Shown: piece by piece, positions 9,957 to 21,053 of the stretch
Numbering within the stretch: position 1 is the first letter of the stretch
Layout: each line of letters starts with the position of its first letter
NCBI GenBank assembly: GCA_963745075.1
Contig: CAVUWV010000024.1
Coordinates: 224,001 to 288,000, forward strand
Source of the DNA: Candidatus Hydrogenedentota bacterium
Lineage (GTDB): Bacteria > Hydrogenedentota > Hydrogenedentia > Hydrogenedentales > SLHB01
DNA length: 64,000 bases
Reading direction: 5' to 3'
Position numbers and translations under genes: made by a program
The notes under the pieces: model-generated
Seen by the model: the letters and a program-made list of their open reading frames with translations, nothing else
Database searches by the model: none
Told to the model about the DNA's origin: nothing

Positions 9957-11352
9957 ATGAATACACGGACTGCGCGAGAATGGTCGCGGCGGGAGATGTT
10001 GGAACTCATGGCAAGCGGGACACTGGCAGCGGCCTTTGGCGCGGGCACGAGTTGGGCACAACCCAAACGCAAACCGAACGTTATCGTCATCTATACCGAT
10101 GACCAGGGTTCGGTGGATATGGGCGTTTACGGCGCGAATGACCTGATGACACCGAACATGGATGCCCTCGCCGCGCGCGGGCGTGCGCTTCACGCAAATG
10201 TATGCACCCGCCCCCGTGTGTTCACCGTCGCGCGCCGGCATGTTGACCGGACGCTATCCGGTCTCCGCTGGGGTTCCGGGCAACGTGTCGTCCAAGCCGG
10301 GCAATTCGGGCATGCCGACCGAACAGGTGACCATGGCCGAGATGTTTAAGGCGGCCGGCTATGCCACGGCCCACATCGGCAAATGGCATCTTGGGTATAC
10401 GCCCGAAACCATGCCCAATGCCCAAGGCTTCGACTATTCCTTCGGATTCATGGGTGGCTGCATCGATAATTACTCCCACTTCTTCTACTGGTCGGGACCC
10501 AACCGCCACGACTTGCATCGAAATGGGGAAGAGGTCTTCTGCGACGGCGAGTACTTCCAGGACCTGATGATTCGCGAAGCGGACAAGTTCATTCAGGATC
10601 ATCACGACGAGCCGTTCTTCATGTACGCCGCATTCAATTGTCCGCACTACCCGTATCAGGGATATGAACGCTGGATAAAGTACTACCGCGACAAAGGCGT
10701 GCCCTATCCCCGCGACTTGTACGCCGCCTTCCTGTCCACCGAAGACGACCATATCGGCCAATTGCTCGGCCTTATCGACAGCGCGGGGCTGCGGGAAGAC
10801 ACCATCATCGTGTTGCAGTCCGACCAGGGTCATTCCACGGAAGAACGCGCCCACTTCGGCGGCGGCAGCGCAGGGCCATACCGTGGGGCGAAATTCAGCA
10901 TGTTCGAAGGCGGCATTCGGATCCCCTCAATCGTATCCTGGCCCGGTCACCTGCCCGAGGGCGAAGTCCGCGATCAAATGGCCCACGGCTGCGACTGGAT
11001 GCCGACGCTGGCGGCGCTGGCCGGCGTCGATACGGTACCGGAGGGTATCGACGGCCGGAGTATTGCCGACGTGATCGAGGGTGCGTCGGCACCCTCGCCC
11101 CACGATCATCTCATCTGGCACTTGCACGAGGGGGATAAGGCAAGCTGGGCCGTCCGCGAAGGCGACTGGAAGCTGTCGGTGAACGTCCGCGACACGACCG
11201 ACGGCCAGAACGTGAAGACCATCGAAGGACCGTTCCTCGCGAACATCGCGGAGGATGTCGGCGAAACGACCAACGTCGCCGCCGACCACCCCGACATCGT
11301 CGAACGTCTGACCAAAATCCACACGGATTGGCTGGCGAATCAGCCGGGGTAG
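9957..11352 (+). CDS. sulfatase family protein, Tat-exported, frameshifted near 10180
   Basis: SRREML Tat signal and KPNVIVIYTDDQG in one frame; VCSPSRAGMLTGRY, GKWHLG and QSDQG in the frame of ORF 10162..11352. Confidence 0.88.
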
Positions 11353-11376
11353 ACGAATTCGTTCGCGCTGACAATC

Positions 11377-11411
11377 AAAGAAGGCACGGTATATAGCACC
11401 GTGCCTTCTTT
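11377..11411. terminator. bidirectional rho-independent terminator
   Basis: aaagaaggcacggt-atatagc-accgtgccttcttt perfect stem between the convergent sulfatase and peptide gene. Confidence 0.75.
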
Positions 11412-11450
11412 AGCTAAAGCGTTTACCTAAAGCGACTCGAAAGCAGCCGC

Positions 11451-11549
11451 TTACATGTCTCCCTTTCCGGGCTTGACCGGCTTGGCCTTCACGGGCACGC
11501 CCGCACATGCCGGAACTTTCGTCTTGGACGTCGACTTCACGTGCTTCAT
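11451..11549 (-). CDS. 32-aa peptide MKHVKSTSKTKVPACAGVPVKAKPVKPGKGDM (paralog 1)
   Basis: SD gaggag upstream of ATG, candidate sigma54 promoter upstream, terminator downstream, paralog at 12871..12973. Confidence 0.7.
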   Translation of the reverse strand: MKHVKSTSKTKVPACAGVPVKAKPVKPGKGDM

Positions 11550-11623
11550 TCTCGTTCTCCTCTCGGGTTGCTGACCGATGCTGGCACACATACCGCCCAC
11601 GGTCGAAAACATCACGCCCTGCA

Positions 11624-11638
11624 GCAACGTTTTCGCCA
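11624..11638 (-). promoter_or_regulatory. candidate sigma54 (-24/-12) promoter for peptide paralog 1
   Basis: minus strand reads TGGCGAA-AACG-TTGC, i.e. GG-N10-GC spacing, ~75 nt upstream of the ATG. Confidence 0.5.
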
Positions 11639-11771
11639 AGTCGGGGATTAGACCTCACAGGAGGTGGCGCGGTTTGCCCGTGCATACGGTATGGTGGAAT
11701 TGTTTTTTGGCCTAAGTAATTTCGAGACAATAACTTATAGTTTACGGGGACAACATCGCCCTGTTGAACGC

Positions 11772-11800
11772 TTTACAAAAAGCGCTTATACGCCGATAAT
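11772..11800 (+). promoter_or_regulatory. candidate sigma70 promoter for the beta-barrel gene
   Basis: TTTACA-17 nt-GATAAT in an AT-rich intergenic stretch. Confidence 0.4.
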
Positions 11801-11881
11801 TAATAGGGACAACGCTAAGGTCCAGGAGCCGTGGGACCTGGGGAAGGACGAGCAACTACGTTGTCGGAAGGGAGTTAGACC

Positions 11882-12751
11882 ATGAAGTACGCCATCACAC
11901 TGATCGCCGCGGCCGCGCTCTGCGGCACCACCTATGCCGACGAAACCGTGGACCTCAACCAGCATCTCTCCCTGACCCTGCGCGCGTGGCGCGTGGACTT
12001 TAATGCCGAAACCTCACTCGTCAAAGACCTTAAGGGCGACAAACTCGATCTGGACGACGAACTCGCCATCGACGACGACTACAGTCCCGAGGCTATCCTG
12101 CGGTGGCAGATCGTGCCGCGCCACGCCCTCGAGCTGGCCTATAACCATATGAGTTTCGACGGGGACGAAATCGTGGCGCAGGGCGTCGTGATTGACGACA
12201 GCTTCATTCCGCTGTTCGCTCATCTCGAAGTCGACTCCAACCTGAATTTCCTCCGGCTCGACTGGCGGCGGTCGTTCTTCGAGCAGGATGCCCGGTTCAA
12301 TATCGACACTATCCTGGGCGTCCAGGGGTTCGATGTCGAGGGTGAATACGAGGCCTACCTGCCCGGCGGTGGTTGGCGGAAAGCCTTCCCCGATTGGGCG
12401 CGGGACCTCCGCCGGGACATCGGCCATTTCCTGCCCGACAAACTCGACTTCCTGAACACCGATCTCTATTACCACGACAAAGAGGACATCACGGCCGGGC
12501 TGCCCATCGTCGGCCTGGGCCTTCAATTCCGGCCCATCGACCGGCTCACCATCAGCGGCCAAGCTTACGGCATGTACGCCGGCGACTACGGCAACTTCTT
12601 CAATGCGGAAGCGGGTCTAAAATTCCGGCTGACCAAATGGCTTGAACTCGAAGGCGGTTACCGCTATTGGAACCTCGAGTACGACGACAGCGACGACGAC
12701 TACCAAGTCATCATGAACGGCGCCTTCGTCGGCGGCACGGTATCGTTCTAG
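11882..12751 (+). CDS. outer-membrane beta-barrel protein (TIGR04219-like appearance)
   Basis: Signal peptide, alternating amphipathic strands, GGYRYWNLEY...GAFVGGTVSF with C-terminal Phe. Confidence 0.8.
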   Translation: MKYAITLIAAAALCGTTYADETVDLNQHLSLTLRAWRVDFNAETSLVKDLKGDKLDLDDELAIDDDYSPEAILRWQIVPRHALELAYNHMSFDGDEIVAQGVVIDDSFIPLFAHLEVDSNLNFLRLDWRRSFFEQDARFNIDTILGVQGFDVEGEYEAYLPGGGWRKAFPDWARDLRRDIGHFLPDKLDFLNTDLYYHDKEDITAGLPIVGLGLQFRPIDRLTISGQAYGMYAGDYGNFFNAEAGLKFRLTKWLELEGGYRYWNLEYDDSDDDYQVIMNGAFVGGTVSF

Positions 12752-12797
12752 GGAGGACCGGGAGCGCCGGGCATGGCCAGCTGGGAAAACCAGTAAC

Positions 12798-12831
12798 GGG
12801 ACCCATAGGACAAACAAGACCTATGGGTCCC
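12798..12831. repeat. hairpin between the convergent beta-barrel and peptide genes
   Basis: gggacccatagg-N10-cctatgggtccc perfect 12-bp inverted repeat. Confidence 0.6.
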
Positions 12832-12870
12832 GGTTCTCTGAATACGATTAACCACGAGGCTGAATTACTC

Positions 12871-12973
12871 TCATGCACGGGCTTCGTCCGGCTTCACCGG
12901 CTTTGCTTTCATCACTGCCATACCAGCCAGCTTCGGGAGCATTCAACTTCGATAGATGCTTAATATGTTTCAT
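12871..12973 (-). CDS. ~33-aa peptide MKHIKHLSKLNAPKLAGMAVMKAKPVKPDEARA (paralog 2; needs removal of one base near 12935)
   Basis: SD aggagg; as given it reads MKHIKHLSKLNAPEAGW..., but the +1 frame encodes KLAGMAVMKAKPVKPDEARA*, collinear with paralog 1. Confidence 0.6.
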
Positions 12974-13349
12974 GGGACAGCCTCCTGTTGTTTTGTCACC
13001 ACGACGTGTATACCCGAATCGGCCGGCAGATGTCACGCAAACCGTCACCGGCCTGCCTCCGTCATACTCGCGAATCGCGGGTATCCATCTTCATTCTCCA
13101 TCTCTGGACCCCAAGAATTCTGAACCACGAAGGACGCGGCGAAGACCTCTTCTGCTCGTCCGCCAGCCTCCCGACTGGGGGGTGCCGTGTCTTCTTCTTT
13201 TGACGATACAAGGGGGGTGCGGGGCTGGGGTGTAGTTTGTCATGGACGGCGATCTCCCCATAAACATAGATCGGGTAGGGGGTTGCGCGGAAATCTGACC
13301 GGAGGCTGGAGTCCGGAGGCTGGAGGGATTGGGGGGTGCATCCTTCCCG

Positions 13350-14195
13350 CCGACCCAAGGCGAAGGTACGGGCGAATCGTTTTAGCAGTTTCCCATGAAG
13401 CCGGGCGATCTTATTTTGGCTGATCGCGGATATTGCGCGGCAAACGGCATCGTGTATGTCGACGCGAGCGACGCCTTTGTGACGTACGCTTCAACCTCAA
13501 CACGTTCCCCTATGAGGACCGTCCGGACGGCCCTTCGAGCTGCTGAGTCGCTTGAAGCGCTTTACGAAAACCGGCGCGATTCGCGATGTGGCCGGTATGG
13601 ATACCCACGGACGAAACGCACAGCGTTGCCGGACGTGATCTGCGTCGTGCGTAAGACTCAAGAAGCTATCCGACAGGCCCACAGAAAACTTCGGCAGCGC
13701 GCGATCTGCAAAGGGTCATAAGCTGCGGCCCCAAACACTCGTCTACGCGGAATACGTCATCGTCTTCACCACCTTTCCCGAAGAGGACTTCTCCGCTGCC
13801 GTCGTGTTGGAATGGTACCGCATTCGCTGGCAGATTGAACTCGTATTCAAACGCTTCAAGCAGATCGCTCAGCTAGGCCACCTACCAAAGCACGACGAAG
13901 AAAGCGCTCAAGCGTGGCTCTACGGCAAACTCTTCATCGCCCTGATAACCGACAAGCTTATCGGTCACGCAAATCGTTTTCCCCCTGGGGATACGAAATG
14001 GACACGCCGCCAGCCCCCGAGTCCGTGGCGTGAGTTCGCCTTCGCCTTCCACCAAGTCGGCGCGCCATCGATCCCGCTGCCCCTGCGCGACGCCATCGAC
14101 AACTGGAACGCGATCGCACGGGCGCTGGCAGAGAAGCCGCGAAACGACGCCTCCAGATGAGCTCTACAATCATTTGAAACAAGTTAGCGCTTATG
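13350..14195 (+). mobile_element. IS4-family transposase remnant (5'-truncated, frameshifted)
   Basis: GDLILADRGY (second catalytic D) and YRIRWQIELVFKRFKQ (YREK motif) in different frames; probable right end agttagcgcttatg. Confidence 0.85.
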
Positions 14196-19698: not shown

Positions 19699-21053
19699 AT
19701 GAAGTCTGAGAAAGCATACATACAGACCTTTGGCTGTCAGATGAACGAGCATGACAGTTTCCGGATGATGGAGGTCTTCGGCCGTGAGGGGTTTCAATTC
19801 ACCCAGAACCCGGAGGAGGCGTCGTTGATTCTGCTGAACACGTGTTCGGTGCGGGAGAATCCGGAGAACAAGGTCTACAGTCTGTTGGGGCGGCTGCGGA
19901 AGTTGAAGCAGCGGGACCCGGATCTCATCATCGGCGTGGGCGGGTGCGTGGCGCAGCAGGAGGGCGAGACCATCCTGAAGCGCGAGAAGACGGTCGACAT
20001 GGTCTTTGGTCCGGACAACTTCTTCAAGCTGCCGGAGATGATCGCGTCGGTGCGGCGGGGCGAGCGGGTGTTGATGACGAAGTGGATGTCCCGCCGTGGC
20101 GGGACGGACCGCGTCCAGAATTTTGTGCCCGAGGAATGGGTCGAAGGCGGGCACGTGGAGGGGTGCAAGGCCTACGTGTCCATCACGAAGGGCTGCGACA
20201 ACTTCTGCACGTTCTGCATCGTGCCGTTCACGCGGGGGCGGGAAGTCAGCCGCGAGGCGGACAACATCCTGCGGGAAGTGCGGGACCTCGTCGAGCCGCG
20301 GCGCGAAGGAAATCTGGTTGCTGGGCCAGAACGTGAATTCGTATCGGGCCCACGACGTGGGGTTCTACGAACTGCTGGACCAGGTGTCGCAGGTCGAGGG
20401 GTTGATGCGCGTGCGGTTCACGTCGCCCCATCCCAACGATTGGAACAACCGGTTGTCCGACCTCATGGCCGAACGGCCGACGATCTGCAACCAGTTGCAC
20501 CTGCCGTTCCAGGCGGGGTCCGACCGCATGCTGCCGATGATGAACCGGGGCCATACCATCGACGAGTACCTGGCAGAAAGTGCGGTACATGCGCGCGATC
20601 AACCCGTCCATCGAAATCAGCACGGACCTCATCGTCGGGTTCCCGACGGAGTCGGACGACGATTTTGAGGGGACGCTCCGCGTCGTCGAGGAAGTCGGGT
20701 TCAGCCAGATCTTCCCCTTCAAATACTCGACGCGTCCCAACACGAAGGCCGCGAAGATGGAGGACGACGTCCCCCGCGCGGTGAAGGAAGAACGGCTGGC
20801 GCGGGTCATCGCGTTGCAGGAACGCATCACCCACGAGCGCACGGCGCACTACGTCGGCACCGAGCAGGACGTCCTCATCGACGCCGCCAACCCGCGTCGA
20901 CGCAACGCCATGAACGGCCGGACGGATGGGTTCCGCCCGATCACCGTCTCCGGCGGCGATTTCGAGATCGGCGATATGGTCCGGGTCCGCGTCACCGCCG
21001 CCAACTTGCATTGGTTGGAAGCGGAACCGGTGAGCGTGGCCGCAGGCGTCTGA
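19699..21053 (+). CDS. miaB: tRNA i6A37 methylthiotransferase MiaB (two frameshifts, near 20295 and 20578)
   Basis: TFGCQMNEHDS, NTCSVRE, GCDNFCTFCIVP, LLGQNVNSY, RFTSPHP, STDLIVGFP and a C-terminal TRAM domain across three frames. Confidence 0.92.

Follow-up and report, generated by a model that had tools for sequence, protein, structure and literature searches.

Two short minus-strand genes, copy 1 and copy 2, which flank an outer-membrane barrel gene in a 64,000-nucleotide stretch of a Candidatus Hydrogenedentota genome (contig CAVUWV010000024.1, positions 224,001 to 288,000; this whole stretch is called the window), are real members of a scattered family of about 25 peptide genes, and their sequences indicate that they are new members of an undescribed pathway, resembling those of RiPPs (peptides that the ribosome makes and that are modified after translation), that descends from SCIFF systems. 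A six-frame scan of the genome (G000) revealed many short open reading frames (ORFs) that begin in the same way. When leader and ribosome-binding site were combined in a profile from 23 further genes of G000, the window copies being left out, copies 1 and 2 scored 25.6 and 19.2, with the next match at 12.9 and the best match in the reversed genome at 13.5, so that the paralogous pair described in the initial annotation, on the strand opposite to the barrel gene between them, stands above this background. The family comprises 25 genes at 15 places, all of 32–73 amino acids (aa), and C10:16121, which scores higher with a wider profile, is one more likely member. The leader is 13–21 residues long and consists of the consensus M[KR][HR][IVL]xx[IVL][ST][KR], a short linker and P-x-x-A, with alanine as its last residue (position −1) in 123 of 133 cases; it therefore ends where a cut had been proposed (at about P-x-x-A/G), processing at this point being presumed. 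The cores that follow are highly variable, ranging over amphipathic helices, cores with two cysteines and short tails rich in lysine. Both KAKPVKP-type copies belong together as first described, within a family far wider than that pair.

Selection on these genes is visible at the level of codons. In two orthologue pairs from the related genomes G106 and G107, six synonymous versus two changed codons and four versus one were counted, non-synonymous sites being about three times more numerous, and therefore the genes are under selection as peptides; homologous small ORFs and codon-level conservation, the lack of which had been named as evidence against a family, are both present. Above the control score, the leader was found on short ORFs and on no long protein of this genome, and among the 14 loci read the remote leader genes had no neighbour in common. 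Neither window peptide matched a Pfam or NCBIfam model at E 0.1, and six of ten family peptides looked up were present in the protein collection, none of them named, in agreement with their description as unannotated. When 18 peptides of the lysine-rich and related types were made into a profile and searched against the PDB, nothing was returned up to E 10, and this sequence search thus gave no confirmation of a likeness to the CteA leader. Taken alone, the two window genes are ordinary family members.

The likely partner in trans, which had been postulated for a family of leader-bearing short peptides, is a processing and export cassette on another contig, in which two leader genes are followed by three GNATs, a CPBP protease, an ATP-binding cassette (ABC) ATPase, an ABC-2 permease (a weak assignment, E 1e-4) and a 640-aa scaffold protein; the same leader stands on both of the genes that head the cassette and on 23 remote genes. 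By sequence, the scaffold has a single relative of solved structure, the SCIFF maturase CteB (5WGG; E 1.5e-20), to which it aligns from residue 5 onwards, and a model of the scaffold with a mean predicted local distance difference test score of 86 matches CteB (Foldseek E 3.6e-18) and, at its C-terminal part, SpeG-type GNATs. The N-terminal RRE region, which is homologous to that of CteB, contains three strands followed by three helices in the model. The scaffold scores 78 bits against TIGR03974, which has a cut-off of 425, and the CxxxCxxC radical-SAM motif occurs in 0 of 58 scaffold sequences. The SPASM cysteines that are left, C393, C396, C402 and C425, are all invariant, and from the alignment to CteB and its ligand order we take them to be those of Aux II. 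These comparisons support a descent of the scaffold from CteB with loss of radical chemistry and fusion of a GNAT. A nearly invariant C-F-C-F-E-C-D motif was also seen at residues 23–28 of the scaffold RRE (L009:687-2606, minus), where CteB has no cysteines, and it is possibly a new metal site or acyl-carrying site.

The cassette GNATs have the GNAT fold and belong to the Pfam family, and their best GNAT matches are polyamine acetyltransferases that act on primary alkylamines. Across the phylum the SpeG-like subunit shows 47–90% identity, and its pocket residues are invariant; the third GNAT gene here is a local duplicate, present in 3 of 32 loci. The CPBP protease matches PF02517 above the cut-off, and the catalytic motifs EExxxR, FxxxH and HxxxN/D described for this family (PMC11980579) are conserved in 31 sequences. 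Of the co-occurring genes suggested at the outset (radical SAM/SPASM, C39-ABC or RRE genes), an RRE/SPASM protein was thus found in the form of the CteB-derived scaffold, but the protease is of the CPBP and not the C39 type; the genome has one weak PF03412 match, a stand-alone 234-aa protein, and the leaders of the family have no Gly-Gly end. The remaining RRE and SPASM genes in the genome (two PqqD and five SPASM matches) were set aside as partners, no leader gene lying beside them. Co-folding of the first 95 scaffold residues with copy 1, both as alignments, scored 0.14 against a mark of 0.32, which speaks neither for nor against docking.

The scaffold is present in 123 of 135 genomes of the phylum (83 of the 86 good ones), nearly always in single copy, and the record titles and Atlas clusters are mostly Ca. 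Hydrogenedentota (for the clusters, the best 80 of 236). In 32 cassette loci, chosen for long contigs and spread over families, the scaffold and permease occur in all 32, the ATPase, CPBP protease and SpeG-like GNAT in 31 and the other GNAT in 30; the six-gene order is kept in 30 of the 32, and leader genes lie directly upstream in 30. A strict DNA pattern of the leader start was found in 127 of the 135 genomes, with 496 matches versus 26 for the reversed pattern. Among the 12 genomes lacking the scaffold, of which ten were checked, six have no pattern match, including all five of genus g52, and four have matches that are not leader genes, while the other two are incomplete genomes (60% and 88%); only two of the 123 scaffold-bearing genomes lack a match. 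Since the joint losses of scaffold and leader genes may amount to only two or three events, this co-occurrence supports the link between leader and cassette without proving it. Searches of G002, G037, G039, G046 and G048 with the scaffold profile and with the SpeG-like subunit gave no orthologue, the weak matches being ordinary GNATs and a QhpD-like enzyme. Fatty-acid genes were considered as a conserved link to the cassette and rejected, as they are adjacent in only 3 of the 32 loci. In 14 of the 32, glutamate synthase genes are found upstream of the cassette. A QhpC-like precursor with a basic leader like that of the family lies beside a radical-SAM gene with intact cysteines at L126:1491 (minus; G046:C19), in a genome without the cassette. 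Among titles and openings of abstracts, outside most subscription journals, no description of this system was found, and a term search of the main text of the RRE-Finder paper gave no mention of GNATs or of the phylum (PMC7470986).

Lysine is nearly universal in the cores. With the weak 20-aa match C12:53558, copy 2 as assembled and the 51-aa ORF at C10:373502 (plus; two TTxxxxEE repeats and a weak leader-profile score), which we take to resemble a graspetide precursor, left out of the counts, lysine is found in 135 of 136 cores (expected 91 at the proteome frequency and 118 at the pooled core frequency), in all 63 held-out cores from peptides not used for the profile (expected 44.5) and in 30 of 31 core families (expected 21.7), and arginine is depleted. 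Amphipathicity is seen in the cassette-linked cores, of which 69 of 92 exceed their own shuffles, and 89 of their 144 lysines lie in the last quarter, after the amphipathic helix. The lysine-rich subfamily, to which the window pair belongs, comprises 22 cores of 13–23 residues with four to six lysines and no cysteine, and by a strict pattern is found in 6 of 135 genomes from two genera; its motif K-x-K-P-[VL]-K is conserved and its genes are amplified in tandem in relatives.

Other arrangements of leader genes were seen in the course of this comparison. A cassette-linked core type F-x-D-F-x-N-A-x-W-R-A-W...K-K-N is conserved across most families (L073–L104; 48 unique cores). Arrays of two-cysteine peptides behind M4 protease genes (L002:6707-8200 on G000:C9; L008:6492-6910 on G000:C18) carry the same leader in the variant M[RHGSD]RI[KR]..S[RS]...P-x-x-A, and they are probably clients of the same cassette. 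Three tandem leader genes lie directly behind sigma-factor-like and zf-HC2 anti-sigma-like genes on the same strand (L007:6431-9582; G000:C17), and a third lysine-rich gene starts 60 bases behind a glutamine-amidotransferase/asparagine-synthase gene, also on the same strand (L010:6901-8904; G000:C30).

The window peptides are very probably clients of the cassette, and, given that they are, acylation of their lysines appears somewhat favoured; for the entire path of leader docking, lysine acylation, cleavage after P-x-x-A and export, the balance seems about even. Each peptide gene would be expressed from its own promoter and ribosome-binding site, as the upstream sequences support. Residues 2–9 of the leader may then dock on the N-terminal RRE-type domain of the radical-dead scaffold, as suggested by its homology to CteB, whose RRE is bound by the leader in the form of a beta strand (PMC6231123, PMC8326336). 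A GNAT unit, likeliest the SpeG-like subunit assisted by the acidic GNAT domains, would acylate the lysine side chains of the core, for which the leader-guided GNAT acylation of core lysines in selidamides is a precedent (PMC13647313), and the CPBP membrane protease would cut after P-x-x-A before the ABC-2 transporter carries the product across the inner membrane. The products of the window pair would then be approximately 16–18 residues long and contain some four lysines; as a short variant, with several acceptors, of the usual cargo of amphipathic helix plus lysine, they might serve as surface, surfactant or signalling lipopeptides.

Several observations weigh against this path. GNAT1, GNAT3 and the fused domain lack the conserved Q/R-x-x-G-x-G/A loop of the canonical GNAT consensus (PMC4964394) and the general-acid tyrosine, and the loops of two GNAT domains are acidic; because of this, the cassette GNATs may be inactive. 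The leaders of the lysine-rich subfamily are as biased towards lysine as the cores (K:R 75:7 versus 99:7), and therefore the lysine content of the window pair alone is no sign of a chemical need; a preference for lysine over arginine was for this reason rejected as proof of modification in this subfamily. The window cores are polar and do not contain the amphipathic helix of the cassette-linked cores, the cleavage site is placed by motif alone, and, as kin and paralogues are not independent, the counts overstate the support. The leader DNA pattern detects only 9 of the 25 genes of this genome, so that a blank is weak evidence.

The missing loops and tyrosine, found throughout the GNAT domains of the cassette, would also be expected if the same cassette worked with no acylation at all, the radical-SAM relic and the GNAT folds serving as peptide-binding chaperones for a route that only cuts and exports unmodified cationic peptides. 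The scaffold is itself already a dead enzyme, fatty-acid genes are seldom next door, and staphylococci export unmodified amphipathic peptides via an ABC transporter (PMC9974410). This reading is nevertheless doubtful, since charge alone needs no choice of lysine over arginine such as is kept in nearly every core family, the SpeG-like subunit is strongly conserved across the phylum down to its pocket, and an atypical P-loop occurs in an active GNAT, while in Eis an inactive GNAT domain helps to form an acidic acceptor pocket (PMC4964394). It is quite unlikely that the GNATs instead cap the new N-terminus after leader removal, as with lipolanthines and goadvionins, with lysine needed for recognition or charge: N-terminal acylation after leader removal is known from several GNAT RiPP classes (PMC13647313) and RimJ/RimL-type GNATs are among the weaker structural matches of the cassette GNATs, but the residue that opens the core is free to vary (Q, F, A, E, S, D), against the near-universal lysine, and the best matches are the enzymes for primary alkylamines. 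Very unlikely, finally, is a role of the short lysine-rich peptides as decoys or regulators, which would tune the processing of the helical peptides by filling the leader-binding site or a GNAT; their short polar cores differ from the helical cassette-linked ones and their genes have promoters of their own, but the conserved motif and the tandem amplification exceed what a decoy needs.

A broader reading of client status and lysine acylation can be put forward as tentative. Hydrogenedentota may have turned a ranthipeptide pathway into a general sorting route, in which a single tag, shared by dozens of unrelated peptides, is recognized by a dead radical-SAM protein, GNATs of non-canonical type lipidate core lysines or otherwise couple them with an unusual donor, and the CPBP protease and ABC-2 transporter deliver the products to the envelope; this would be a near-core feature of the phylum, and the window cores would be lipopeptides with several acyl groups, which the acidic barrel might hold. 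If so, one single-copy cassette would handle amphipathic helices, two-cysteine mini-proteins and 15-residue poly-lysine peptides by way of a 14–16-residue tag, a radical-SAM enzyme would have been retained solely as a docking scaffold, roughly nine of every ten genomes in this uncultured phylum would carry a ribosomal peptide pathway of an undescribed class, and acylated peptides could be made with a leader system of great tolerance. The window peptides, as the shortest and most soluble cargo, would be the easiest first test substrates.

The features of the window and the cassette are collected in Table 1. The copy 1 peptide consists of a 16-residue leader and a 16-residue core with four lysines and a net charge of +3. 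The Shine–Dalgarno sites of both copies are strong and lie seven bases 5' of the start, and a hairpin follows each copy, as initially reported; each hairpin also lies behind a convergent gene (sulfatase or barrel) and can fold on both strands, and the two are probable terminators, the first a two-way terminator common to copy 1 and the sulfatase gene and the second common to the barrel and copy 2 genes. In G105, G106 and G107, copy-1-type genes likewise lie downstream of the sulfatase gene. The GG-N10-GC site claimed as a sigma54-like promoter of copy 1 is present, and such sites are rare (52 in the genome, which has an RpoN-box gene), but the −12 GC is not kept in syntenic relatives. At the matching place, the relatives have by eye GTGAC[GA] or GTTA[TC]G, 17 nt and TATA, a −35/−10 pair of which copy 1 shows a weak version and copy 2 a better one. 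A broken DDE transposase (PF01609) lies at 13395-14160, just upstream of copy 2, where relatives carry a second peptide gene, and short repeats of the CTCCAG type occur upstream of the copy 2 site in the window (13299-13325) and in G106 and G107 (L049, L050).

Table 1. Positions of the peptide genes, their signals and associated features (window coordinates unless a contig is named)
Feature	Position	Strand	Basis or remark
Sulfatase gene, convergent on copy 1	9957-11352	plus	+1 frameshift near 10180; same neighbour in G105, G106, G107
Hairpin, perfect 14-bp, A and T tracts on both sides	11377-11411	strand-neutral	z −4.9
Peptide gene copy 1	11549-11451	minus	32-codon ORF; leader-profile match; syntenic relatives in G105, G106, G107
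Shine–Dalgarno GAGGAG, copy 1	11562-11557	minus	sequence
Degenerate sigma70-like −35/−10 pair, 17-nt spacer, copy 1	11615-11587	minus	putative promoter, by-eye reading of upstream sequences
Sigma54-like −24/−12 site, copy 1	11639-11623	minus	motif match; not conserved in relatives
Outer-membrane protein gene	11882-12751	plus	289 aa, signal peptide, predicted 10-stranded barrel
Hairpin, 18-nt arms, between convergent barrel and copy 2 genes	12792-12837	strand-neutral	z −4.7
Peptide gene copy 2	12973-12871	minus	shifted frame: P-x-x-A leader end, KAKPVKP core
Zone with extra base	12935-12940	minus	CCC run 12937-12935; alignment gap at 12940, exact base not fixed
Shine–Dalgarno AGGAGG, copy 2	12986-12981	minus	sequence
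Sigma70-like −35/−10 pair, copy 2	13036-13007	minus	same site matched in G104
Processing/export cassette	G000:C20:133684-140571		gene content given in the text

As assembled, copy 2 is an ORF of 41 aa that ends at 12848; it is the shifted frame that contains the KAKPVKP tail. The extra base suspected in the CCC run of an indel-prone assembly is probably an assembly error, because relatives at the same site are without it and similar +1 errors occur in neighbouring genes. G104, G106 and G107 have two leader genes each at the copy 2 site, convergent on the 3' end of the barrel gene, and none of these six carries the base; the G106 gene is in register with the shifted frame of copy 2. Frameshifts were found in 4 of 23 assembly genes tested with proteins of the same genus, including three of six on this contig (among them miaB and the adjacent sulfatase), and four of six events were +1, with antisense shadows dropped from the count. 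Besides that in the sulfatase gene, single-base frameshifts lie in miaB near 20295 and 20575, all three probably assembly errors. Three DNA runs of one study, and no RNA run listed, carried small shares of the sequence; over 11200-13300 their reads gave one 163-base contig over copy 1, with one letter different, and no contig over copy 2. That the base is real, which would make copy 2 alone a recent pseudogene or a 41-aa peptide with a new tail, is unlikely: the 41-aa frame is open and the locus may be decaying, with two or three genes per site in G106 versus one here and an insertion-sequence fragment just upstream, but the promoter, ribosome-binding site and shifted tail of copy 2 are all intact.

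The barrel, for which a role as receptor or exporter or an unrelated insertion had been considered, is most likely a neighbour of the peptide genes that is linked to them only within the genus. Its model contains ten long strands (mean predicted local distance difference test score 73.6), and its fold ties with Dot/Icm porin I, the omptin pOmpT and OpcA (Z 20.6, 20.3 and 19.5; root-mean-square deviation 2.7–4.3 Å over 199–215 residues), of which only pOmpT is a protease. It scores 37.1 bits against TIGR04219, below the cut-off of 105, and a YfaZ match covers only the last 53 residues. At E 1e-10 it occurs in 8 of 135 genomes, with close orthologues in four of the genus's five remaining genomes and distant orthologues in a further three, and a protein search gave ten matches. 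A dedicated partnership with the lysine-rich peptides, as surface receptor, anchor or outer-membrane exit, would be compatible with processing by the cassette but is improbable. Leader genes converge on the 3' end of the barrel gene in G000, G104, G106 and G107, and G106 has the full window layout, with three leader genes before the barrel and two after; the barrel is strongly acidic (51 D+E versus 25 K+R) and the peptides are basic, and omptins, with an Asp83/Asp85 pair and an Asp210/His212 dyad, act on basic peptides (PMC11410778). By the sequence test, however, no D-x-H omptin dyad is present in the window protein and none is conserved in 13 aligned sequences, and the genes lie on opposite strands with no common transcript. 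Two distant barrel homologues have no leader gene within the more than 6 kb read on each side, the third lying 0.45 kb from a contig end; in G103 and G104 the place upstream of the barrel is taken by other genes, and G000 (C30), G103, G104 and G096 carry lysine-rich genes at sites unrelated to it, with no barrel match found in G096. The simplest reading is that two leader-gene clusters settled behind two-way terminators and have been inherited with their neighbours.

Among known systems, SCIFF ranthipeptides (CteA and CteB; TIGR03974) are the closest, as the scaffold is homologous to CteB over the RRE, barrel and SPASM regions. The CteA leader starts with MKHIK, and SCIFF and QhpC leaders are known to start with MKH[IL]K. 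The lead taken from the MKHIK-type leader was well directed as to the ancestry of the partner, but with radical chemistry lost the products are not ranthipeptides: the scaffold retains four cysteines assigned to Aux II and carries a fused GNAT, the cassette includes a CPBP protease and an ABC-2 permease, and the precursors, with about 25 scattered unrelated cores, do not have the six-cysteine core (no cysteine in the 22 lysine-rich cores and no match to an NCBIfam precursor model at E 0.1). Family leaders also differ from those of double-glycine peptides (C39-ABC) in having no Gly-Gly end. The ten-stranded barrels (omptins, OpcA, Dot/Icm porin I) tie with the window barrel in fold, but at 11–13% identity. 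Phenol-soluble modulins with PmtCD are families of short amphipathic helical peptides with a dedicated ABC exporter (PMC9974410), and the cassette-linked cores are similarly amphipathic, whereas the window cores are polar, lysine-rich and non-helical and are preceded by a leader. Phenol-soluble modulins are not known to have a cleaved leader. Selidamides (kamptornamide and nostolysamide, with a KspN-type GNAT) share a leader-guided GNAT that places a fatty acyl group on a core lysine or ornithine and accepts very short cores (PMC13647313), but their leaders are long, of the NHLP or Nif11 type with a Gly-Gly site, and they employ a lanthionine synthetase; the leaders described here are short and end with P-x-x-A, no such synthetase is found among the conserved genes, and the GNATs are non-canonical. 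The myxosortase/MYXO-CTERM system likewise pairs one phylum-wide CPBP protease with dozens of scattered tagged clients for which lipidation is proposed (PMC11980579), but its tag is C-terminal, with an invariant cysteine, on large Sec-exported proteins, whereas the tag in this genome is an N-terminal leader on short ORFs.

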